Source: an uncultured Candidatus Saccharibacteria bacterium (GTDB lineage: Bacteria > Patescibacteriota > Minisyncoccia > UBA6257 > UBA9933). From it: a stretch of 64,000 nucleotides of DNA. Both the position numbers and the translations under genes were made by a program. The notes under the pieces are model-generated. The model was given only the letters and a program-made list of their open reading frames with translations, ran no database searches and was not told the DNA's origin. Location of the stretch: assembly GCA_964453135.1 (NCBI GenBank), contig CAYVOL010000001.1:88895-152894 (forward strand), read 5' to 3'. Of this stretch, positions 9,168 to 19,606 are shown piece after piece (position 1 is the stretch's first letter; every line of letters begins with the position of its first letter).

Positions 9168-9196
9168 AATAAAAACCGCCTTTCAGCGGTTTTTCT
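9168..9196 (-). terminator. Rho-independent terminator downstream of copA (stem AAAACCGC/GCGGTTTT, U-tract on the minus strand)
   Basis: Hairpin 'aaaaccgcctttcagcggttttt' immediately 3' of the copA stop at 9202. Confidence 0.5.
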
Positions 9197-9201
9197 TCTG
9201 A

Positions 9202-11556
9202 TTAAGATTTTAGATTTTTCTCCACCCGCTTCAGAAGCACGGCATTCGTGGCCACCACGATCGAAGAAACAGACATGAGGAGCGCGGAAATTTCCGGTCG
9301 GAGCGAAAGGCCGTACGCTTTGTAGAACACTCCGGCGGCAACCGGAATCGCAAGTATGTTGTAAATCGCGGCCCAGAAGAGATTCTGTTTCATTTTCACG
9401 ACTGTCGCCTTGGAAAGGCGGATTGCCGCGACGATGTCGTAAGGATCGGATCTCATGAGCACGATATTGCCCGTTTCTATTGCGACGTCAGTCCCGGCGC
9501 CGATCGCGATGCCGATATCGGCTTGCGCCAAAGCCGGAGCATCATTAATGCCGTCGCCGACCATAGCGACAAATTTCTTCTCGTCTTGAAGCTGTTTTAC
9601 ATATTTCGCTTTCTCTTCCGGCAAAACTTCGGAAAATACGCGATCAATGCCAAGATCGCTTCCTACGACTTCGGCGACTTTTTTGTGATCGCCTGTGATC
9701 ATGACGACTTCGATGCCGAGTCCTTTGAGGCCAGCCACGGCTTTCTTTGCCGATGGTTTCACCATATCCGCGGCGGCAACGACGCCGGCAATATTTCCGC
9801 CGACGGCGAGCAAACTCAACGTTTTTCCTTCCCCAGCGAGGCGATCGAGCGTAGCACGCGCATCGCCGACGTTTACATTATTATTCGCCATCAACTTTTC
9901 TGTTCCAGCAAGCACGGTTTGCCCCTTAATCTCCGCTTTGAGGCCATACCCGGCAACCGACTCAAATTTCTCTATCGGTTCGAGCGGTACCGCACCTCGT
10001 TTCGTCGCTTCTTCCATGATTGCCTTTGCCAAGGGATGGTTAGATCCGAATTCAACACTTGCCTCATAGCGAAGAATTTCCTGCTCCGTGAAGCCGTTGA
10101 AAGCAGCGACATCGGTTACTTTCGGTTTGCCTTCGGTGAGCGTTCCAGTTTTGTCGAGCACGATCGCGTTGAGCCTTGATGTGTTCTCAAGCGTTGCAGC
10201 GTCTTTTATTAAGATACTGTGCTTCGCACCGACGCCGGTTCCGACGGCCACGGCTGTAGGCGTGGCAAGCCCTAAAGCGTCTGGACAAGCAATCACAACC
10301 GTGGAGACGGCAAACGTAAGCGCAGTTAAGAGCCCCGCGGCTGCGATAAAATACCAACCGAGAAATGCCGCAAGACCGGATCCGATCGCGACAATCACAA
10401 GCCAGCCAGCCGCCTTGTCCGCAATACGCTGGCCGGGCGCTTTGGAGTTTTGAGCCGTTTCTACCATCTTGATGATCTGCGCGAGCACCGTTTCGGAGCC
10501 GACCTGCATGGCCATGAACCTCACCGTGCCGTTCTGGTTCACCGAACCGCCGACGACTTTCGCGCCGATGGTTTTTGAAATCGGCATGGATTCGCCCGTT
10601 ACGAGAGATTCATCGATTGAAGTTTCTCCTTCGGTTATTTCGCCGTCAACCGGCACCTTGTCGCCCGGCCGCAGAACGACAATATCGTCGCGGACAATTT
10701 CCGCGCTCGGTATATTCATCTCGACACCACCGCGAATCACGTTCGCTTTCGGCGGCACGAGATCAAAAAGCGCGCGCAAAGCATCCGAGGTGCCGCGCCG
10801 CGATTTCATTTCCATCCAATGGCCGAAAAGCACGAAGGTTACCAGAAGCGCCGCCGCCTCATAAAAAGTTTCCGAATCCGGTTTGATAATCGTGAGAAGT
10901 ACGCTGAAAATATAGGCAGCCAATACGCCGGTGGCAATCAATACTGCCATATTGAGTTTTTTTGCTTTGAGCGAATAGTAGGTGCCGGTGATAAAAATGG
11001 AGCCGGTCCAGAAGACAATCGGCGTCGTGAGTACCAAGAGCGCCCAATTCAAAATCTGAGGCGATGCGATGTGAAGTTTTAGAAGATTCGCGCCGACCGG
11101 CGAGAAGAAGAAAATCGGAATGGACAAAATAAACGATATAAAAAATCTGCGCTTCATGTCGCGCTCCATCTGCTTTGCCATCGAGGGATCGGTCATTGCG
11201 GTCTCGTGATCCATGTGGCTCATCTTCGACATGTCATGCCCGGCGTGCTCGCCGCCCTTTCCGGCTTTTTTCTTCTCCGGAATCAGATCCATGCCGCACC
11301 CGGGGCATTTGCCCGGACCCGATTTGCGCACCTCCGGATGCATGGGACAGGTATAAATCGTTTCCCCACCGCTGTGACCGGCATGCTTCTTGTGCGCCAA
11401 TTTCTCGCCCATGCCGTACTCATATTGCTTCGCCTCCATGCCGCACCCGCAGGTGGCCGCGAGCTTTTCCGCGGCACAACCAAGGCACTCCTTGCCGCAC
11501 GCGCAATTAAGCTTTCTCTCTTTTTCCATATTCATATTGTGATGATCGTGATTCAT
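9202..11556 (-). CDS. copA: Copper-translocating P1B-type ATPase (CopA family). It has a His/Met-rich N-terminus with CxxC motifs and a 'CPMHP...CPGCGM' metal-binding motif. The TM6 motif reads CPD instead of CPC.
   Basis: 'DKTGTLT' phosphorylation site, 'GDGINDAPAL' hinge, 'TGES' actuator, 'IACPDALGLATP' in TM6, eight TM helices, 784 aa. Confidence 0.9.
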   Translation of the reverse strand: MNHDHHNMNMEKERKLNCACGKECLGCAAEKLAATCGCGMEAKQYEYGMGEKLAHKKHAGHSGGETIYTCPMHPEVRKSGPGKCPGCGMDLIPEKKKAGKGGEHAGHDMSKMSHMDHETAMTDPSMAKQMERDMKRRFFISFILSIPIFFFSPVGANLLKLHIASPQILNWALLVLTTPIVFWTGSIFITGTYYSLKAKKLNMAVLIATGVLAAYIFSVLLTIIKPDSETFYEAAALLVTFVLFGHWMEMKSRRGTSDALRALFDLVPPKANVIRGGVEMNIPSAEIVRDDIVVLRPGDKVPVDGEITEGETSIDESLVTGESMPISKTIGAKVVGGSVNQNGTVRFMAMQVGSETVLAQIIKMVETAQNSKAPGQRIADKAAGWLVIVAIGSGLAAFLGWYFIAAAGLLTALTFAVSTVVIACPDALGLATPTAVAVGTGVGAKHSILIKDAATLENTSRLNAIVLDKTGTLTEGKPKVTDVAAFNGFTEQEILRYEASVEFGSNHPLAKAIMEEATKRGAVPLEPIEKFESVAGYGLKAEIKGQTVLAGTEKLMANNNVNVGDARATLDRLAGEGKTLSLLAVGGNIAGVVAAADMVKPSAKKAVAGLKGLGIEVVMITGDHKKVAEVVGSDLGIDRVFSEVLPEEKAKYVKQLQDEKKFVAMVGDGINDAPALAQADIGIAIGAGTDVAIETGNIVLMRSDPYDIVAAIRLSKATVVKMKQNLFWAAIYNILAIPVAAGVFYKAYGLSLRPEISALLMSVSSIVVATNAVLLKRVEKNLKS

Positions 11557-11909
11557 TGGTTGGAAATGTTTTTATCTAAAAATAATGTCATGGCCATAGG
11601 CAGGAATCCAGCTTCCTCTAGAATTTCGAGCGGCGCTCCCCGCACTGCCATGACGCCGATGATCCAGATTGCAGCCCAGAGCGCCGTCCGCCGGATTCCG
11701 ATGTTGAGGAAAAGCAGCAGGGCGACGATCACGTCATTGATGCCGATCAGAACGACAAATGTGTTTGCGGCAACTGGTAGGATATTCGTTGCGAACGATC
11801 CATTGAGGAGCTCGATGAACTCCGCTGGCGCGAAGAATGCGGTCAATGCGTTTGCGAGGAACGCGAGCCCGAGGCCGATGCGGATGAGGAATCGATAGTT
11901 ATGGATCAT
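11553..11909 (-). CDS. Small four-TM membrane protein (DoxX-like); first gene of the copA operon. Start reassigned to MIHNYRF.
   Basis: Hydrophobic 118 aa. The ORF-track start at 11921 lies inside the predicted -10 box; the ATG at 11907-11909 follows the promoter. Its stop overlaps the copA start. Confidence 0.45.
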   Translation of the reverse strand: MIHNYRFLIRIGLGLAFLANALTAFFAPAEFIELLNGSFATNILPVAANTFVVLIGINDVIVALLLFLNIGIRRTALWAAIWIIGVMAVRGAPLEILEEAGFLPMAMTLFLDKNISNQ

Positions 11910-11911
11910 GG

Positions 11912-11949
11912 CTATTTCCATAATACCCCCATGGGGTATTTGCTGTCAA
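11912..11949 (-). promoter_or_regulatory. Sigma70-like promoter, TTGACA-N18-TATTAT, reading on the minus strand. The spacer holds a perfect palindrome ATACCCCCATGGGGTAT, a CsoR-type operator (copy 1). It drives the DoxX-like/copA operon.
   Basis: Minus-strand read: GTTGACAgcaaATACCCCATGGGGGTATTATggaaatagccATG. The arms ATACCCC/GGGGTAT match the G/C-tract inverted repeats bound by CsoR-family repressors. A second copy lies at 19525-19551. Confidence 0.55.
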
Positions 11950-12658
11950 CTGCGCGCCCTTTCCGCCATGCCAAATGCTCATATACGCTCGACCAGAGGA
12001 AACCCAAGCCGAAGGCGAACATCAGCTCCTCGAGCGGGATGCCGGCAAGGAGGATTCCCGAAATTGCGGGCAGATTCCAGACGCGCTCGACGTACCCCGG
12101 ATATACCGCAATGAGCGTAAGAAAATAAAGGAAATACAAACCTAGGAACAAGAATGCGCTTGTAATCATCTTCTTTTTGAGATCGGGGCGGCAGTACCAT
12201 GTGGCAAACCCTCCCGCGATCATGGCGATGAATGCGGAATAGATGGGATTGAGGCGAGTCGCGGCAAGAAACGCGGCGAAAATGATCGGGGCGGAAAGAA
12301 GCGACCAGAGGTGGTATTTGTGCCGAGGATCGTGCCGCTCCATGAAAGAGACCGGCTCGTGGCGCACCTTGAATATCCAGTCGTAGAGCGCCACCGCAAT
12401 GCCGCCCATTGCGAACGAGAAAATTATGCTTTCGATATCAAAGCCCGTTCGGTGCGCAAGATCAAAGAGCGAGGGCGGATTCCAGTACGCCGGAACGAAA
12501 AGCGGCTCGGTGAAACCGAGAAGCGATGTCCACAAACTCACGAGAAACATTTCTTTTCTTCCTTCTCTGCTCCGGAACGCGAAATAGATAAATGCCCAAA
12601 TCGCAAGAAGCAACAAACTCCAGAGCAGCCACGCGAATTGCGGTTCATGCGGACTCAT
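11912..12658 (-). CDS. Polytopic membrane protein (248 aa) with 'PLEEL' motifs reminiscent of lycopene-cyclase-domain (CrtYcd-like) proteins; function unknown
   Basis: ORF track; multiple TM helices; motifs 'EPLFVPAYW' and 'GIPLEELMFAFG'. The 5' end overlaps the promoter region by a few nucleotides, so the true start may be internal. Confidence 0.45.
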   Translation of the reverse strand: MSPHEPQFAWLLWSLLLLAIWAFIYFAFRSREGRKEMFLVSLWTSLLGFTEPLFVPAYWNPPSLFDLAHRTGFDIESIIFSFAMGGIAVALYDWIFKVRHEPVSFMERHDPRHKYHLWSLLSAPIIFAAFLAATRLNPIYSAFIAMIAGGFATWYCRPDLKKKMITSAFLFLGLYFLYFLTLIAVYPGYVERVWNLPAISGILLAGIPLEELMFAFGLGFLWSSVYEHLAWRKGRAVDSKYPMGVLWK

Positions 12659-12665
12659 GCTCTAA

Positions 12666-12851
12666 TTATATTCCTTCTTTTCTTTTTTTCGATGGACTGA
12701 CTCCCTCCGGAATATATTTGATCGGCGTTTTCTCGAATTCCTCCTTGCATGCTTTGCAGCAGAAGTAAAAGTTGTTGCCGCCGTATTTCAAGATCGCATA
12801 CTCCTGCTTTCGCCGAAGCTTCTTCCCACACACAGGATCAACGTTGAACAT
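12666..12851 (-). CDS. YHS-domain (TRASH-like) small metal-binding protein
   Basis: 'DPVCGKKL...YGGNNFYFCCKACKEEF' is the YHS-domain pattern; 61 aa. Confidence 0.7.
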   Translation of the reverse strand: MFNVDPVCGKKLRRKQEYAILKYGGNNFYFCCKACKEEFEKTPIKYIPEGVSPSKKRKEGI

Positions 12852-12863
12852 GATTTTGGTTGG

Positions 12864-13514
12864 TTAATTTTGTTTCGACCGCAATTTCGGAATAAACGAC
12901 GGCACGCGTGCCGCATAGGCGCCCCACGCGGGCCCGAATTCTTTCTGTGATTCTTTTTCTTCACTCCGTGCCAAACGAACGTACGCCACGATAAGAATCG
13001 GAAACATGGCGAGGGTGACGAGCGTCGGCCACTGAAGCAGAAACCCAAGCATGATGATGACGAAGGCGGCGTACTGCGGATGGCGGATGCGCGCATACGG
13101 GCCTATGGTTGCAAGCGCATGCTGTTTCTGCGCGGCATGCAAGACATCCCACGCCTTGGCGAGCAGTATGAAGCCGAAGCCGATCAGGATGTAGCTTGCG
13201 ATGTGGAAGGGTCCGAAATGCGGATCCCCGCCCCAGCCAAAAAGGTCTTCCAAGAGATGGCCGGAGTTATGTGCCAAAAGGTCAATGCCCGGCACGCGCT
13301 TCACTAGCCATCCCGAAACGAGATAGATCGTGAGCGGGAATCCGTACATCTCGGTGAAGAGCGCGACGATGAACGCCGAGAATCCGCCGAGCGATCGCCA
13401 GTCGCGGGCGGTTTTCGGCTTCACGAAACTGGTCGCAAACGCGATAAAGATCGCTGAGTTGATGATGACGAGCGGCCAGAGGCCGTAACCGTTTTCCATG
13501 GAAGTTAATGGCAA
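12864..13514 (-). CDS. Isoprenylcysteine carboxyl methyltransferase (ICMT/PEMT) family membrane methyltransferase
   Basis: 'GPYARIRHPQYAAFVIIMLG' signature plus multiple TM helices. Confidence 0.75.
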   Translation of the reverse strand: MPLTSMENGYGLWPLVIINSAIFIAFATSFVKPKTARDWRSLGGFSAFIVALFTEMYGFPLTIYLVSGWLVKRVPGIDLLAHNSGHLLEDLFGWGGDPHFGPFHIASYILIGFGFILLAKAWDVLHAAQKQHALATIGPYARIRHPQYAAFVIIMLGFLLQWPTLVTLAMFPILIVAYVRLARSEEKESQKEFGPAWGAYAARVPSFIPKLRSKQN

Positions 13515-13780
13515 CAGGAGTGTCCTCCGCCGTGCTTGATTGATTCGGCCTTTTTGGGATCAGCTGCCGCGTGGCTCGAATGATCTTCGGTATCTTGCGA
13601 TCCATGCCCGCGACGCATCATCCAAAGATGCGCAACAACCATCCCGCCGATAATGAGGATAAACGGCCATGATCTGACCCCTCCCCCGGCGGCGAAGATG
13701 ACGAAACCGAGGATAAGCAGGCATGGCAGCATCATCCATATCATGGATGAATTGTGCTTTTCGTTGTTGTTGTCGTTCAT
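13505..13780 (-). CDS. DUF2933-like small membrane protein with a His/Cys-rich C-terminus (start set at MNDNNNEKH)
   Basis: Single TM helix 'MIWMMLPCLLILGFVIFAAGG', 'HLWMMRRGHG...HGGGHSCCH'. The family is typical of metal-resistance loci. Family assignment is from recall. Confidence 0.5.
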   Translation of the reverse strand: MNDNNNEKHNSSMIWMMLPCLLILGFVIFAAGGGVRSWPFILIIGGMVVAHLWMMRRGHGSQDTEDHSSHAAADPKKAESIKHGGGHSCCH

Positions 13781-13929
13781 GTTTTTGAGATTTAATTTGT
13801 ATTCTACCTTTGCTATGCCGCATATTTTTCCGAATCTCCGTCGAAGTGCTCCTTGCAAGATTGCAAACAAAAGTAATTGAGCAGCCGTTAACCAGCGGAT
13901 TATCCGCGTAGCTGCAAACGCCCGTATTA

Positions 13930-14193
13930 CTACTTTTTCTCGATTAAGCTCGTGTTATGCATCCAGACGTAGTACCACGCGAAGATCCACGAGAAGGCAA
14001 ACGCGTAGAGCGCCATCAGGATGAAGCCGCCGAATGTACCCCACGTAACGCCGGGAAACGTTTCGAAAATCTGGTGGTGCAGCTGGATTCCCGCGTCAGA
14101 TCGAAGCGGCAAAAATCCTCCAAGCCAGCAGACGACAAGCACGATTTCCCCGCCCAAAACGCAAAGCCATCCGTATCGTTTGAGTGAAAGCAT
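13930..14193 (-). CDS. Small two-TM membrane protein, hypothetical
   Basis: ORF track; hydrophobic; same-strand packing within the island. Confidence 0.4.
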   Translation of the reverse strand: MLSLKRYGWLCVLGGEIVLVVCWLGGFLPLRSDAGIQLHHQIFETFPGVTWGTFGGFILMALYAFAFSWIFAWYYVWMHNTSLIEKK

Positions 14194-14202
14194 GTTGGTA
14201 AA

Positions 14203-14589
14203 TTATTTTATGTTATCGACGACCTTTTTTAATTTCTCTTCTACCTGCGCGGCGATATCGGCCAGGACGCGGTTTTTAACCATCCCCATCGCCGCAGTCG
14301 GCAGAATTGCAGATACATATGTTTTCTTGCCATCCTCGTAGACAATCACATTGCACGGCAGGAGGAGCCCAATATCCTTTTCCGTTTTCAATGCTTCGTA
14401 GGCGAGCGGCGGATTGCACGCGCCCAAGATGAGGTAATTTTCGTATTCAACATCAAGCTTCTTCTTGAGCGTCTCTTTCACGTCGATCTCCGTAAGTACG
14501 CCGAATCCTTCTTTTTGCAATTCGGATTTTATTTTCTCTACCGCTTCCTCGAACGGAAGTGAGATTTGTCTTTTATAGCCGTAGTTCAT
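14203..14589 (-). CDS. DUF302-domain protein
   Basis: 'GFGVLTEIDVKETLKKKL...YLILGACNPPLAYEAL' matches the DUF302 pattern; 128 aa. Confidence 0.7.
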   Translation of the reverse strand: MNYGYKRQISLPFEEAVEKIKSELQKEGFGVLTEIDVKETLKKKLDVEYENYLILGACNPPLAYEALKTEKDIGLLLPCNVIVYEDGKKTYVSAILPTAAMGMVKNRVLADIAAQVEEKLKKVVDNIK

Positions 14590-14619
14590 TTTATTTTTTC
14601 TATATTCTTGCTTCGGCCT

Positions 14620-15075
14620 TTAAAGCTGCCACGTAAATTTCCGCTCGCTTATCCCACCCACATCGCGGACGATGACCGTAATGGATGCGGGTTTGGGCGA
14701 AATCTGCGCAAAGACAAGCGTGCCGTTCCGGTGGTGCCCGCCGGGCGGTGGTCCTTCCCATCTGATCGGCGCAACTGTATCGCCCCGATCATCGGTGAGC
14801 GTCACGATTTTTGTCATGTCTTCATCAAGGCTTCCCGCGTGCGTATTAAGACCAACGCCGATGCTCCATTCGCCTGAAGAGAGATCTATCGGCTGGACTT
14901 GAACTTCTATTGTGCCCTGCGAATCGTATTTTGCTTCGTATACGGACGCTGAGGAATTTCCCTGCGGCAAAACAGCCGCTGGCGCCGGTTCTTTTCTTGA
15001 TCCAATGAGCGCCCAGAGAAAAAATCCGGCAGCGGCAATCACAAGAATAGTTATGATGAGATTTGATTTTTTCAT
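14620..15075 (-). CDS. Membrane-anchored or secreted hypothetical protein (151 aa)
   Basis: N-terminal signal anchor 'LIITILVIAAAGFFLWALIG'; no recognised domain. Confidence 0.45.
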   Translation of the reverse strand: MKKSNLIITILVIAAAGFFLWALIGSRKEPAPAAVLPQGNSSASVYEAKYDSQGTIEVQVQPIDLSSGEWSIGVGLNTHAGSLDEDMTKIVTLTDDRGDTVAPIRWEGPPPGGHHRNGTLVFAQISPKPASITVIVRDVGGISERKFTWQL

Positions 15076-15515
15076 TGGCTGTGTCGTTTAAATTTCATGA
15101 TTCGACTATACAGGAACGCAATGCCGCCAAGATTGAATGCGATGCCGACCCAGAAAAACTGCACTTGATAGACGCTGATGAACGACACGAAGGCCGAGAC
15201 GCCTAATACCGGCAGGATATTCACGAGATAATGGGCACAGCAGGAAATTATCGCTCCAGTCGAGGTGGCGCCAGTTACCGCAAGCAGCTTGCCGCTCGGA
15301 TCTTTGGCGCGCACCAATGCCTTGAGATAGCTATATAAGCCGACTTGGATTCCAAAACCAGACGCAAGACTTATAATGAAGTACCAAAACTGCGAGAACT
15401 GGCTCGCCGCAAATATTAGCCCCGATATCACAGACACAACCCCGAAATAAACCGCAAGGAGAATGGCTGCTGCTTCAAATCCTTTTATGATTGATGGGGC
15501 AATGATGCGATCCAT
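15072..15515 (-). CDS. Four-TM membrane protein, hypothetical (contains 'CCAHY')
   Basis: ORF track; hydrophobic; its stop overlaps the start of the upstream gene (15072/15075). Confidence 0.45.
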   Translation of the reverse strand: MDRIIAPSIIKGFEAAAILLAVYFGVVSVISGLIFAASQFSQFWYFIISLASGFGIQVGLYSYLKALVRAKDPSGKLLAVTGATSTGAIISCCAHYLVNILPVLGVSAFVSFISVYQVQFFWVGIAFNLGGIAFLYSRIMKFKRHSQ

Positions 15516-15517
15516 AG

Positions 15518-16141
15518 TTATTTCAACTTGGCGAGTTCTGTTGCGACCTTGTCGTTGTCAATCGCCATATTCGGATCGTCGAACGTATAGCGTACAATCC
15601 CCTGTTTGTCGACAAGAACGAAGCTGTGTCCAGGAAACGATCCGTAGTGCATCGAGGAAGGAACCGCGAGCATGCCGAATTTCCGCGAAACGGATTTGTC
15701 GGTATCGAAGAGCAGCGTCGCCTTTCCTAGTTCTGGCATTTTCTGCACCGCGCTCTGCCAGCTCGACGGCTGGTCTATTACCACCGAGAAGGCAACCGTG
15801 TCCGGTCCCGTAAACCGAGGATCGGTTGCAAGCGATACCATCTGGTTCCAGCACGCGGGGTAACACATGATGCCTTCGTTAAAGAATAACACCGCTTTTT
15901 TCCCTTTCAAGCTCTCATTTGAGTATTCGGTCCCGTTGCGGTCCCGGAGCGAAAATGCCGGAACAGCTTTTCCTATGAGATCGCCATAGGATCCCGAAGA
16001 GTCCGAACCGCCAGAGTGCATTGGATCGCCGGTTGTCCCTCCTGATTGCGAATTTCCGCGGCTCATGAAATAGAAGCCGCCAACGACGAATGCGATGATC
16101 GCGATGCCCGCGACAATTGTTGATGTGTTTTTATTTTTCAT
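15518..16141 (-). CDS. Thioredoxin-fold redoxin (TlpA/ResA/AhpC-TSA-like thiol-disulfide oxidoreductase), membrane-anchored
   Basis: N-terminal TM helix, 'KAVLFFNEGIMCYPACWNQ' CxxC active site, thioredoxin-fold length. Confidence 0.7.
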   Translation of the reverse strand: MKNKNTSTIVAGIAIIAFVVGGFYFMSRGNSQSGGTTGDPMHSGGSDSSGSYGDLIGKAVPAFSLRDRNGTEYSNESLKGKKAVLFFNEGIMCYPACWNQMVSLATDPRFTGPDTVAFSVVIDQPSSWQSAVQKMPELGKATLLFDTDKSVSRKFGMLAVPSSMHYGSFPGHSFVLVDKQGIVRYTFDDPNMAIDNDKVATELAKLK

Positions 16142-17043
16142 GGTTGTTGTTTTTCTTTTTTCCCGCCCGAGGCGGATCCGCCTTCGGCGGAAAGCTGGCG
16201 GATGCCGGTTGCCGCGAGCCAGGCGAAAATCACCACAATGAGAATCGCCCAGACGAACTGCGGCACGCCGCCGATGAATTGGTTAAGCCACATTTGGACT
16301 TTTGTAAGGAAGATGTTCACGTTGATCTGTAATTCGGAATGCATGGCGACATTGCCGGTCAATGCCCATATCAAGGTCAATACGCCCATAACCGCGAAGG
16401 TCGCTCCGGCGAGGAAATCCGATATCCGAAATGTTTTATCTTTTCCGAAGATGCGGACCGTGACTGGCTTCCGCGCACCAAAAAGCCGATCAGTCAAATG
16501 CGAGCGATCAAACATCAAAGAAAGAGCAAAGAGCGGCGCGACCATGCCGAGCACATATGCCAAAGTATAGACGATTCCCCAGAGGTACGACCCCGGGAGC
16601 ATAGAGAGCGCAAGCGCTCCCGCCAATACCGGCGCACAGCAGGTGGTCGCAATGCCGGAAAAAATGCCCAGCATATAAACGGACCCGATGCTTTCCTTTC
16701 CGGTAAGTTCCGGCTTCGGCCGAAACCGCTTCGGTAGCGCAAACCGGCGGCCAGTAAGAAGTGAGATGCCGAGCGCAAGTAGCACTAATCCGATGACAGT
16801 AAAGATTATCGAGTGGTAGCGGCTGAAAATCTGGCCGAGCGCCGAGATGCCAAGTCCGAGCGGCAGGAAAACCGTCATGATGCCGAGAAAGAAAATGAAT
16901 GTCATCAAAAACACCTTCCGACGCGTCCTAAAGATCGAACCGAGATACGACGGCAGAAGCACTGTAACACAACATGGGGCGAAAAGCGCCGCTACCCCTG
17001 CGATGAATGCCGCTATAAGCGATGTGCCAATGAGTATTTCCAT
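16138..17043 (-). CDS. ccdA: Cytochrome c biogenesis protein CcdA / DsbD-family transmembrane thiol-disulfide electron transporter
   Basis: 'FIAGVAALFAPCCVTVLLPSYLGS' and a second conserved Cys ('ATTCCAPVLAGAL') in a polytopic membrane protein. Confidence 0.8.
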   Translation of the reverse strand: MEILIGTSLIAAFIAGVAALFAPCCVTVLLPSYLGSIFRTRRKVFLMTFIFFLGIMTVFLPLGLGISALGQIFSRYHSIIFTVIGLVLLALGISLLTGRRFALPKRFRPKPELTGKESIGSVYMLGIFSGIATTCCAPVLAGALALSMLPGSYLWGIVYTLAYVLGMVAPLFALSLMFDRSHLTDRLFGARKPVTVRIFGKDKTFRISDFLAGATFAVMGVLTLIWALTGNVAMHSELQINVNIFLTKVQMWLNQFIGGVPQFVWAILIVVIFAWLAATGIRQLSAEGGSASGGKKEKQQP

Positions 17044-17047
17044 AGCG

Positions 17048-18079
17048 TTATACCCCGCAACCGCCTTGTTGCCTCTGCGGCTGAATTATTTGCGACTGTC
17101 CGCTGTCCACGCCGCATCCGCCTGGGCGTTGCGTCGGCGGTTCGGGAACGACAAGCGATTGAATTCTCGCGTATCCTTGTATGCTTGAGTACGAAGCTCC
17201 CAGTACTTCAGCCGGATTCACCGATGACCAATTCGTTCCTTTGCTTTGGAAGTATCGCGCAATAGTCCGGTAGGTGTCCGGAAACCAGTAGGAGTTCACG
17301 GCGAGCGCGGTTTTGTACATTTGATCTTCGCTCGCGCCCTGCGAAGCCATGAGCTCTAAGAGCCCAAGCATCGCCATGCCGTGGTTGCAATCCGGAAAGT
17401 ACGTCGAGTTACCGCAACAGGGGCGGTAGATTCCCTTGGCAACCTTTTCAACGAGCGCCTGCTGATCCTCTGTAAGCGCCACAAACTGATGCTTTGAGTA
17501 ATGACTCATGGCATTACCAACGGCAATCGTCCATCCGCCGGTTGATGCAAACCTGCCCGCTCCGCCATACTGCGGATCTTGCATTGGACCTTGCTCAAGA
17601 ATCCGGTTCTTATTGCCAAGACCGAACGCCCAAAGAAGATTCAATACCGCGCCGCTATTCTGCGGAGTAATTTTAAGGTTGCCGTTATCGGGCGAATCAA
17701 GCAACGCCTGCACATCAGAAGGCATTCCTCCGCGTTGCGCATAGAGAGCCTTGAATTGCGTTTCGTCAACTACGCCCGACTGCGCAAGTCGCTTGCCAAG
17801 ATCGCCCCAGCGCACCGGCAGCGCGACGCCTTCCTGCGGCGTAATCGCCTCGGTCAAGGCATCAGCCGATTGCGCGGAGCTCTGTTGCTGCTTCACTGCT
17901 TTGCTTCTTTCCGCCTTCAATCCGGTAGTATATATCCATGTTCCGGAAAACACGAGGACGGAAATAAGAATGCTCCACGCGAGGAAATGGTCTTTTTTCG
18001 GCTGCTCAGGATTGGAGCTTTCGTTATTTAATTCCGCGCGCTCTTCTATTATTTTATCATTGTCTTCCATGTTATTCAT
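17048..18079 (-). CDS. Hypothetical exported or membrane-anchored protein with conserved cysteines ('YRPCCGNSTYFPDCNHGMAM') and a C-terminal 'GGCGV' duplication
   Basis: ORF track; N-terminal TM segment; Cys motifs; no family recognised. Confidence 0.45.
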   Translation of the reverse strand: MNNMEDNDKIIEERAELNNESSNPEQPKKDHFLAWSILISVLVFSGTWIYTTGLKAERSKAVKQQQSSAQSADALTEAITPQEGVALPVRWGDLGKRLAQSGVVDETQFKALYAQRGGMPSDVQALLDSPDNGNLKITPQNSGAVLNLLWAFGLGNKNRILEQGPMQDPQYGGAGRFASTGGWTIAVGNAMSHYSKHQFVALTEDQQALVEKVAKGIYRPCCGNSTYFPDCNHGMAMLGLLELMASQGASEDQMYKTALAVNSYWFPDTYRTIARYFQSKGTNWSSVNPAEVLGASYSSIQGYARIQSLVVPEPPTQRPGGCGVDSGQSQIIQPQRQQGGCGV

Positions 18080-18563
18080 CGCAGCATTCGGCGAGCTTGG
18101 CCACGATGTCTTCGAGGCTCACACTGCCTTTTGCCGCCTTTTTTATAGTTTGGCCTTTGATAAGTTTTAATTTGAGTGCCCAAAAAATGGAGTACGCCTT
18201 GTAGGCGTTTTCGAATGTTTTCTTGGCTTTTTCCTTTTCTCCTTCAACATGCAATTTATTGCCGACTTCGATGAGGCGCATCGTGGCGGCCAAGAGATGC
18301 TTTGAGATACACCACGTTTCGCCCTCATGCTTCGGCATAAGCTGAGCCAAAAGTTCCTTGCGCAATTCCCGAATCTCTGCTGAAGTATCAAAGTATTCGT
18401 CTTGTTTTGTTTTAACGCCTGTAAAGAAAAAATGCTCTTCAAGGCTTATGAGATTCATAACCGCCAAGCTCAAATCCTCGGCAGTGGAAAGATCCACGCC
18501 TGCGTTTTCTTTTTGAGTTTCTATTTTTTTGAGAAATTCCTCAAGGGTCAATTTTGTTTCCAT
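18072..18563 (-). CDS. Hypothetical protein (163 aa) ending in 'LAECCDE'
   Basis: ORF track; coding-like periodicity; no domain recognised. Confidence 0.4.
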   Translation of the reverse strand: METKLTLEEFLKKIETQKENAGVDLSTAEDLSLAVMNLISLEEHFFFTGVKTKQDEYFDTSAEIRELRKELLAQLMPKHEGETWCISKHLLAATMRLIEVGNKLHVEGEKEKAKKTFENAYKAYSIFWALKLKLIKGQTIKKAAKGSVSLEDIVAKLAECCDE

Positions 18564-19255: not shown

Positions 19256-19515
19256 TTATCTTCGCTGCGCCGAATGATAGACTTTGAGAATTTCATCGGT
19301 CGCTTTTTTCCCTTGACCCGACTTCATCTGCATCGCGACATGCGTTGACAAATGGTTTTGCAAAAGAAGTCCGTCAATGCCTGAAAGCGCCTGCTTAATC
19401 GCGGATGATTGTGTGATAACATCAATGCAGTATTTGTCTTCGCGGATCATCTTCTCAAGGCCGGCCAACTGGCCCTTCACGATCTGAAGGCGACGAAGAG
19501 CTTTTTTCTTCAAGA
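19256..19515 (-). CDS. csoR: CsoR/RcnR-family (DUF156) metal-sensing transcriptional repressor (start set at METVLKKK)
   Basis: 'LRRLQIVKGQLAGLEKMIREDKYCIDVITQSSAIKQALSGIDGLLLQNHL...H' matches the CsoR helix bundle with its Cys/His ligands. The ATG at 19513-19515 sits just after the promoter -10. Confidence 0.75.
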
Positions 19516-19518
19516 CTG

Positions 19519-19556
19519 TTTCCATGCTGGTAGTATACCCCCATAGGGTATTTGCT
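19519..19556 (-). promoter_or_regulatory. Sigma70-like promoter, TTGACA-N18-TATACT, with the CsoR-type palindrome ATACCCCCATAGGGTAT in its spacer (copy 2). It drives csoR, implying autoregulation.
   Basis: Minus-strand read: TTGACAgcaaATACCCTATGGGGGTATACTaccagcATG. It matches the block at 11923-11949 at 26 of 27 positions. Confidence 0.55.
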
Positions 19557-19606
19557 GTCAAGCACTCCCGTGGATAACCCAAAATCCAAAGTAAATATAT
19601 TTTTGT

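Follow-up and report, generated by a model that had tools for sequence, protein, structure and literature searches.

Gene content of the locus

Between about 22.9 and 9.2 kb of the window (the whole stretch of DNA that was analyzed, 64 kb in length), every gene lies on the minus strand with short gaps. This run holds a putative metal regulator, a P1B ATPase, and a series of membrane and thiol- or metal-related genes, including one for a DsbA-like protein, together with two promoter-like modules that we call site 1 and site 2 (Table 1). The host belongs to the Patescibacteria/CPR, and among named relatives 'Candidatus Liptonbacteria' and Paceibacterota stand closest to it.

Table 1. Features of the locus, with coordinates given in the window
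Feature	Position	Strand	Remarks
Terminator-like hairpin, 9-bp stem between A and T runs	9171..9194	.	Directly past the ATPase stop codon
CopA-like P1B ATPase, 784 aa	9202..11556	-	His-rich N-terminus, HMBD, CPD for CPC
DoxX/MauE-like membrane protein, 118 aa	11553..11909	-	First gene after site 1; ATG 10 nt past the -10
Lycopene-cyclase-domain membrane protein gene	11912..12658	-	Last ~12 codons encoded by site 1
Site 1 promoter-operator	11920..11949	-	-35 TTGACA (11949-11944), spacer 18 nt, -10 TATTAT (11925-11920)
Site 1 operator	11923..11939	.	ATACCCC-ATG-GGGGTAT, perfect palindrome, arms 7 nt, center 3 nt, 0 mismatches
Genes between csoR and site 1	12666..18563	-	YHS, ICMT-like, DUF302, Redoxin, DsbD_TM, and several unknowns
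Membrane protein gene, 140 aa	18832..19254	-	Begins 1 nt past the csoR stop codon (predicted co-transcription); from gene calls on contigs with an identical CsoR and the ORF list
csoR homolog, 89 aa, C33/H58/H62	19256..19525	-	PF02583; ATG 6 nt past the -10
Site 2 promoter-operator	19532..19561	-	-35 TTGACA (19561-19556), spacer 18 nt, -10 TATACT (19537-19532)
Site 2 operator	19535..19551	.	ATACCCT-ATG-GGGGTAT, 1 mismatch between arms

The gene that follows site 2 had been named csoR in an earlier note on this DNA, and the name is well founded. Specifically, its 89-aa product matches PF02583 (Trns_repr_metal) with E=1.6e-22 and 80.1 bits (cut-off 22.8), and its best PDB matches are the CsoR structures 2hh7, 4m1p, 4adz, and 3aai, the nearest solved relatives being sensors of Cu(I). 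The genes at 12666-18563 possibly form one long operon headed by csoR.

The unit that follows site 1 opens with the DoxX-like gene. Its product scores 21.8 bits against Pfam DoxX, under the cut-off of 23.6, and a tblastn search with it against the 80 genome loci described below gives no matches, its homologs coming only from the protein database. The start codon of the ATPase overlaps the stop codon of this gene (ATGA), and the hairpin past the ATPase (9171-9194) is likely the end of the transcription unit. The ATPase itself scores 564.6 bits against the NCBIfam copper-translocating model TIGR01511 (cut-off 397), contains Pfam matches to E1-E2_ATPase, Hydrolase, and HMBD, and has L. pneumophila CopA (3rfu) as its nearest solved structure.

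CopA-type P1B-1 Cu(I) ATPases carry three motifs, namely CPC in TM4, N-x6-YN-x4-P, and M-x2-SS-x5-N. Direct reading of the ATPase finds the latter two (NLFWAAIYNILAIP and MSVSSIVVATN), while the CPC position is occupied by CPD (VVIACPDALGLATP, residues ~424-426). The identification of this gene as copA, made in the earlier note, is thus borne out by the copper P1B model and not by the TM4 motif, and because the second Cys of CPC is missing the substrate of the enzyme is not certain. The CPD form recurs beside csoR in five of the related loci (L001, L009, L018, L025, and L045), and it has been noted only as an atypical, uncharacterized Cu-ATPase subtype in three Rhizobiales (PMC5552934).

Site 1 overlaps the 3' end of the lycopene-cyclase-domain gene, and the C-terminus of that protein, DSKYPMGVLWK before the stop codon, is encoded by the regulatory DNA. 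The ortholog in L002 has the same tail; the one in L083, where there is no site at this position, stops ~14 codons earlier. The gene also has a promoter-like site of its own at 12665-12692 (minus strand), which reads TCGAAA-N16-TATAAT, lacks an operator, and is separated by 6 nt from ATG 12658, the same spacing as that found at csoR.

Two near-identical promoter-operator modules

Read on the minus strand, both sites have the form TTGACA-N18-TAnnnT, and the palindrome ATACCC(C/T)-ATG-GGGGTAT fills the spacer and extends into the -10, so that at site 1 the first 3 nt of the -10 come from the right arm of the operator. The full reading is TTGACA-GCAAATACCCCATGGGGG-TATTAT-GGAAATAGCC-ATG(11909) for site 1 and TTGACA-GCAAATACCCTATGGGGG-TATACT-ACCAGC-ATG(19525) for site 2. 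Within them lies a 27-mer, TTGACAGCAAATACCC[C/T]ATGGGGGTAT (minus-strand copy at site 1: TTGACAGCAAATACCCCATGGGGGTAT), whose two copies are identical at 26 of 27 positions and stand ~7.6 kb apart.

The earlier note had described this module as a 27-bp block with 26/27 identity that combines TTGACA, an 18-nt spacer with an inverted repeat, and a -10, and each of these elements is read at both sites. Its location of the first copy at 11923-11949 is exact, with the copy on the minus strand. The second copy had been put at 19525-19551, and its true span is 19535-19561, a shift of 10 nt. The start codons do fall 6-10 nt downstream, as proposed, with MIHNYRF beginning 10 nt after the -10 of site 1 (ATG 11909) and METVL 6 nt after that of site 2 (ATG 19525).

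Such modules are rare in the window. With at most 2 mismatches, the palindrome ATACCCCNNNGGGGTAT is present at only 2 places in the 64 kb, which are sites 1 and 2, against an expectation of 0.08, and the expected number of occurrences of the 27-mer with at most 3 mismatches in the same 64 kb is 0. When the looser pattern TACCC-N5-GGGTA is allowed up to 2 mismatches, the 64 kb contains 7 matches versus 10.7 expected, and only sites 1 and 2 match perfectly. A sigma-70 consensus scan of the region from 9 to 21 kb ranks the two sites as its top two, each with 11/12 consensus positions and an 18-nt spacer.

The inverted repeat had also been proposed to be a G/C-tract operator of the CsoR/RcnR kind. 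Type-2 CsoR operators are interrupted G/C tracts with a 5'-TAC/GTA-3' dyad 9 bp apart; the dyad is essential to binding, and each type-2 site takes two tetramers (PMC3902906). Both sites follow this rule, as TAC-CCCATGGGG-GTA and TAC-CCTATGGGG-GTA. They also correspond to the Corynebacterium glutamicum CsoR box, 5'-ATACCCCnnnGGGGTAT-3' in the form cited in PMC5057107, to which site 1 agrees at 14/14 specified bases and site 2 at 13/14, and the proposal is upheld on both counts, as far as the box is given in that source.

Conservation of the modules among relatives

An alignment of the relatives of the regulator was scanned against 185,579 species genomes, yielding 80 loci (designated here by L numbers), in most of which a P1B ATPase adjoins csoR. 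Of the 30 closest loci, all of them from Patescibacteria, about 28 have an operator lying within a promoter upstream of csoR, and TACCC-N5-GGGTA is found 25-27 nt ahead of the csoR ATG in most of these ~30. Promoter spacing was counted in those 22 loci whose alignment extends to the first residue of the regulator. All 22 have a -35, a spacer of 16-18 nt (mostly 17), and a -10 that starts at the 'TA' of the right operator arm, and the distance from this -10 to the csoR ATG is 6 nt in 16 loci, 7 in 2, 8 in 3, and 9 in 1. A promoter score of at least 10 is reached by 14 of the 22 csoR starts versus 4 of 246 random ATGs from the same loci. More distant relatives, from Chloroflexota, have Shine-Dalgarno sequences and longer, different palindromes.

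Modules nearly identical to site 2 precede csoR in L001 and in L083, the closest syntenic relative, and the P1B ATPase is preceded by an added module in L001, L002, and L083. Specifically, the second site of L002 is orthologous to site 1 and shares with it the gene junction, the lycopene-cyclase tail, and TTGACA-N18-TATTAT. The position of the second module varies: in the window it precedes the DoxX-like gene, in L083 it follows that gene, and L001 and L002 have it immediately ahead of the ATPase. In some relatives, e.g. L024, only the csoR site is present and the ATPase is in the same operon. L083 also has a third module (TTGACATTATACCCCTATAGGGTATATTCT, positions 1060-1115), located before a gene for a three-domain multicopper oxidase and just upstream of csoR. 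The placement of modules before csoR, ATPase, and multicopper oxidase genes speaks for a motif that belongs to a small regulon connected with metals, and against a generic repeat. This conservation also supports the compact, autoregulated CsoR regulon that had been predicted from the window.

The YHS, ICMT-like, DUF302, Redoxin, and DsbD_TM genes are linked to csoR in L083-L086 as well. The gene order csoR...YHS/DUF302/DsbD_TM/Redoxin/ICMT...Lycopene_cyc-DoxX-ATPase recurs in these CPR contigs, with the DoxX-like gene sitting between the Lycopene_cyc gene and the ATPase. The more distant syntenic clusters, L084-L086, show no clean operator. Two such CPR contigs are flanked by recombinase, AbiEii, RadC, or SMODS genes, which suggests a mobile island. 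In the window, the metal/thiol cluster (~10000-18000) has a GC content of 0.50-0.54, versus ~0.40-0.49, and mostly 0.42-0.46, in the rest. We take the combination of DsbD-like, thioredoxin-fold, and DsbA-like proteins to recall the Scs copper-sensitivity-suppressor loci.

The sensor site of the regulator

When the regulator is aligned to Mtb CsoR (2hh7, offset +3), the residues C36, H61, Y35, and E81 correspond to C33, H58, Y32, and E78, respectively, and C65 corresponds to H62, a position where T. thermophilus CsoR (3aai) also has His. The canonical Cu(I) triad Cys-His-Cys (Mtb C36/H61/C65) is therefore replaced here by Cys-His-His, and C33, H58, and H62 are invariant across the Patescibacteria clade in the alignment of relatives. 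In Mtb CsoR, the second-shell pair Tyr35/Glu81 couples Cu(I) binding to DNA release. Its counterparts Y32/E78 are kept in nearly all of the ~80 loci, the Glu position deviating only in the distant L070, L078, and L080.

We considered other members of the family, and RcnR, CstR, and FrmR identities are ruled out by the ligand residues. Residue 3 among the relatives is T, Q, P, S, E, or K and never His, so the regulator has no RcnR-like H-C-H-H site, and its single Cys (C33) excludes a CstR-type dithiol sensor. A Ni/Co sensor of the RcnR/InrS type was likewise rejected, given that His3 is absent and that the operator is an interrupted tract with a TAC/GTA dyad, not a type-1 TACT-G6-N-AGTA site. 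The class to which the regulator belongs, i.e. x-C-H-H proteins of Patescibacteria (loci L001-L027) without the N-terminal His of Thermus CsoR and RcnR, appears to be uncharacterized.

The ATPases linked to C-H-H regulators are of the CPC (14), CPH (11), and CPD (4) types, and those linked to C-H-C regulators are mostly CPC (28). Copper is favored as the signal because C-H-H regulators are linked both to ATPases of the canonical CopA and CopB types and to a multicopper oxidase. Strict specificity for Cu(I) would go one step further, and it is put forward only conditionally because the regulator is Cys-His-His and the ATPase CPD.

Start codons and predicted leaderless transcripts

Almost all csoR homologs are 88-90 aa long and have a common first Met. 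As 6 nt separate the -10 from the ATG, the A of ATG 19525 is the 7th nucleotide past the -10 and falls at the usual start position of transcription, and a leaderless csoR mRNA is therefore predicted. In Bradyrhizobium liaoningense, the csoR transcription start has been mapped by RACE to the A of the ATG, with the CsoR box lying over the -10 (PMC5057107).

For the DoxX-like gene, the NCBI call for an identical protein (P0121) is 118 aa long, and the homolog P0123 starts at the same residue. We discarded ATG 11921 (MEIAM...) as a start because it overlaps with the -10, because translation from the corresponding ATG of L002 meets a stop codon, and because MIHNYRF and MIRNYQF are the first residues of the NCBI call and of P0123. 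With this candidate excluded, and given the starts of the homolog and of the NCBI call, ATG 11909 is the start of the gene. The idea that the two sites fix the true starts of the genes behind them is accordingly in agreement with both sets of homologs.

A DoxX-like transcript from site 1 is predicted to have a leader of ~4 nt and no Shine-Dalgarno sequence. Only 12 of the 68 long ORFs of the window have an SD-like motif 4-18 nt ahead of their first ATG, and most upstream regions are A/T-rich, which indicates that SD-independent initiation is normal in the window. Across the window, TAnnnT located 4-12 nt before start codons shows no clear enrichment over the expectation for AT-rich upstream regions, and we therefore make no claim of general leaderless genes in this genome.

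Origin of the two copies

The module had been called duplicated, and two near-identical copies are indeed present; the recent origin that the word implies is contradicted by -10 variants that are conserved by gene context. The csoR sites of the window, L001, and L083 all have TATACT, and the ATPase-side sites there have TATTAT or TATCAT. Because the variant tracks the gene context across genomes, both sites must predate these lineages. We accordingly reject recent duplication as the main cause of the 26/27 identity, each -10 being closer to the orthologous site elsewhere than to its partner in the window, and attribute most of the identity to constraint, because the 27-mer is made up of a consensus -35, the operator, and the first bases of the -10.

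Downstream of the 27-mer, ATGGAAATAGCCATGA (site 1) and ATGGAAACAGTCTTGA (the first csoR codons) agree at 13/16 positions with an 8-nt offset (11894-11922 versus 19510-19525, minus strand), and such a similarity is reached by 8 of 2000 shuffles. Judged from the sequences, it may be the relic of an old copying of the csoR promoter together with its first codons, or it may be due to chance.

A predicted metal-released switch and its alternatives

The analysis establishes the sequence anatomy of the modules, the family membership of the regulator, the identity of the operators to CsoR boxes, and the conservation of the layout in relatives. On these grounds, we find it highly probable that sites 1 and 2 are CsoR operator-promoters, through which a metal-released repressor encoded at 19256-19525 controls both units. 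In the model that we infer for binding, metal response, transcription starts, and operon extents, apo tetramers of the CsoR-family repressor would bind the TAC-N9-GTA G/C-tract palindrome at both promoters. Since the palindrome fills the spacer between -35 and -10 and overlaps the -10, the bound repressor should exclude RNA polymerase. A rising level of cytoplasmic metal, most likely Cu(I) and perhaps with broader selectivity, would then occupy Cys33/His58/His62, and the metal-loaded repressor would leave the DNA and allow two units to be transcribed. In one, a leaderless mRNA starting at the A of ATG 19525 would carry csoR together with the genes behind it, which amounts to autoregulation; the other would comprise the DoxX-like gene and the CopA-like efflux ATPase, with transcription starting ~4 nt ahead of ATG 11909. 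As the 3' end of the lycopene-cyclase-domain gene contains site 1, the bound repressor could, speculatively, also act as a roadblock to read-through.

The same switch might respond to an effector other than Cu(I) specifically, i.e. the regulator could be a broad sensor or a sensor of Zn, Cd, Ni, Ag, or Cu(II), and the CPD ATPase could export another ion. We consider this unlikely. It draws on the C-H-H ligands in place of C-H-C and on the CPD metal site of the ATPase, a subtype that is uncharacterized (PMC5552934), and also on T. thermophilus CsoR, the only characterized C-H-H protein in the account cited in PMC5057107, which is reported to answer to Cu(I), Cu(II), Zn, and Cd. However, the N-terminal His that is blamed, along with His70, for the low selectivity of the Thermus protein, and that RcnR needs, is absent here. 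Moreover, 25 loci link the C-H-H clade to an ATPase of the CPC CopA or CPH CopB type, and L083 links it to a multicopper oxidase; the second-shell Tyr/Glu of the Cu(I) CsoRs is conserved in nearly all ~80 loci, and the best matches of the ATPase are copper ATPases. All of this favors copper.

Two further alternatives would do away with the CsoR switch itself, and both fare poorly. If the 27-mer were a dispersed repeat of a generic kind (REP- or MITE-like), or the product of a local duplication of recent date, and had no regulatory role, this would explain why two copies with 26/27 identity are found inside 7.6 kb and why a weaker 13/16 similarity follows them at an 8-nt offset (8/2000 shuffles). 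Yet the 64 kb holds only two copies, and their upstream flanks show no similarity; in ~450 kb of related loci, the motif keeps a constant distance to the gene behind it, and this gene is nearly always csoR or one for an ATPase or a multicopper oxidase; and the -10 variants are common to the orthologous sites in L001 and L083, so the copies are old and separately conserved. The earlier note had reasoned that occurrence at many unrelated loci would speak for a generic repeat, and with two copies in the window and a gene-specific distribution outside it, we hold this explanation to be highly improbable. MerR-type activation, in which a CueR-like activator binds the palindrome in an over-long spacer and realigns the -35 and -10, would fit a palindrome within the spacer and a spacer that, with 18 nt, is slightly above the 17-nt optimum. 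MerR-family promoters have spacers of 19-20 bp. The spacers of the relatives, by contrast, are 16-18 nt and mostly 17; the gene found with the motif is csoR, and not one of the MerR type, at almost all loci; and the motif is identical to CsoR boxes that were defined by experiment, as these are described in PMC3902906 and PMC5057107. We find such activation scarcely credible.

A wider reading of the locus would extend the CsoR switch beyond copper efflux. The Patescibacteria x-C-H-H clade could be a distinct sensor class that, via leaderless operator-promoters, controls a large envelope thiol/metal-defense island (DsbD-like, redoxin, YHS, DUF302, ICMT-like, lycopene-cyclase-domain, and DoxX-like proteins) together with a CPD-motif P1B ATPase whose ion or transport chemistry differs from that of the classical Cu(I) CopA. 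We offer this reading as conjecture and think it quite unlikely as a whole.

Comparison with known systems

The CsoR switch itself is known, and what we describe is another case of it in the understudied phylum Patescibacteria; our literature searches returned no paper on CsoR in CPR or on leaderless mRNAs in Patescibacteria. According to the description cited in PMC5057107, C. glutamicum CsoR controls a copper P-type ATPase and csoR, as proposed here, and has an identical operator consensus. That protein is reported there to be C-H-C, whereas the window has a C-H-H regulator, a CPD ATPase, and a Patescibacteria/CPR host. The csoR-cueA system of B. liaoningense shares the box over the -10, a leaderless autoregulated csoR (predicted in our case), and the control of a Cu ATPase (PMC5057107). 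It differs in having one box in a bidirectional promoter (PMC5057107); here, two co-directional modules lie 7.6 kb apart, and one of them forms part of the 3' end of the preceding coding sequence.

Similarly, S. lividans CsoR has a small regulon with near-identical TAC-N9-GTA operators at the csoR and ATPase operons. Specifically, there are three type-2 operators (csoR, copZA1, and copZA2), modeled with two tetramers per operator (PMC3902906). The Streptomyces consensus differs from the window sites in its 5-nt non-conserved center and extra TA flanks (PMC3902906), and unlike the copZA operons of S. lividans, the cluster in the window shows no gene for a CopZ chaperone.

T. thermophilus CsoR (TTHA1719, 3aai) resembles the regulator in having His for the second Cys, with C-H-H at the aligned positions, but has an extra N-terminal His (H-C-H-H), blamed for its low selectivity, which the Patescibacteria proteins lack. 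E. coli RcnR and Synechocystis InrS belong to the same fold family and have G/C-tract operators flanked by AT-rich dyads. In contrast to the present case, with no His3 and a type-2 operator, RcnR needs His3 and the N-terminal amine and uses type-1 TACT-G6-N-AGTA sites, and the genes linked to RcnR and InrS are rcnA or nrsD, not copper ATPases.

For Patescibacteria/CPR, where regulation has hardly been studied, these results provide a testable regulatory annotation that covers promoter, operator, start codons, and a small regulon. They suggest that the canonical CsoR operator code and the consensus sigma-70 elements carry over unchanged to CPR bacteria, and the conserved 6-nt gap between -10 and ATG offers clean comparative evidence of leaderless transcripts in Patescibacteria. 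CsoR biology gains nothing conceptually new from the locus. More unusual leads come from the Cys-His-His sensor, from the ATPase with its CPD motif, and from the large conserved cluster of accessory genes.

Other observations

In L067, a Ktedonobacteraceae contig, a perfect operator (ATACCCCCAGGGGGTAT) is repeated in tandem at positions 1470-1530, the two copies being 33 nt apart, and the pair precedes a C-H-C csoR that is linked to a CPH ATPase.

Of 43 operator-promoter modules, 10 have a DnaA-box-like motif, TTATCCAC(A), between 0 and 30 nt upstream of the -35, e.g. at 19569-19577 of the window (minus strand) and also in L001, L083, L011, L022, L025, and L007. At the ATPase sites of L083 and L001, TTATCCAC is the coding tail of the DoxX-like gene (KKLST and the stop codon) or a remnant of it, and at the csoR sites it is intergenic. 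Allowing one mismatch, TTATCCAC has 22 matches in the window versus 10.9 expected, a ~2-fold excess.
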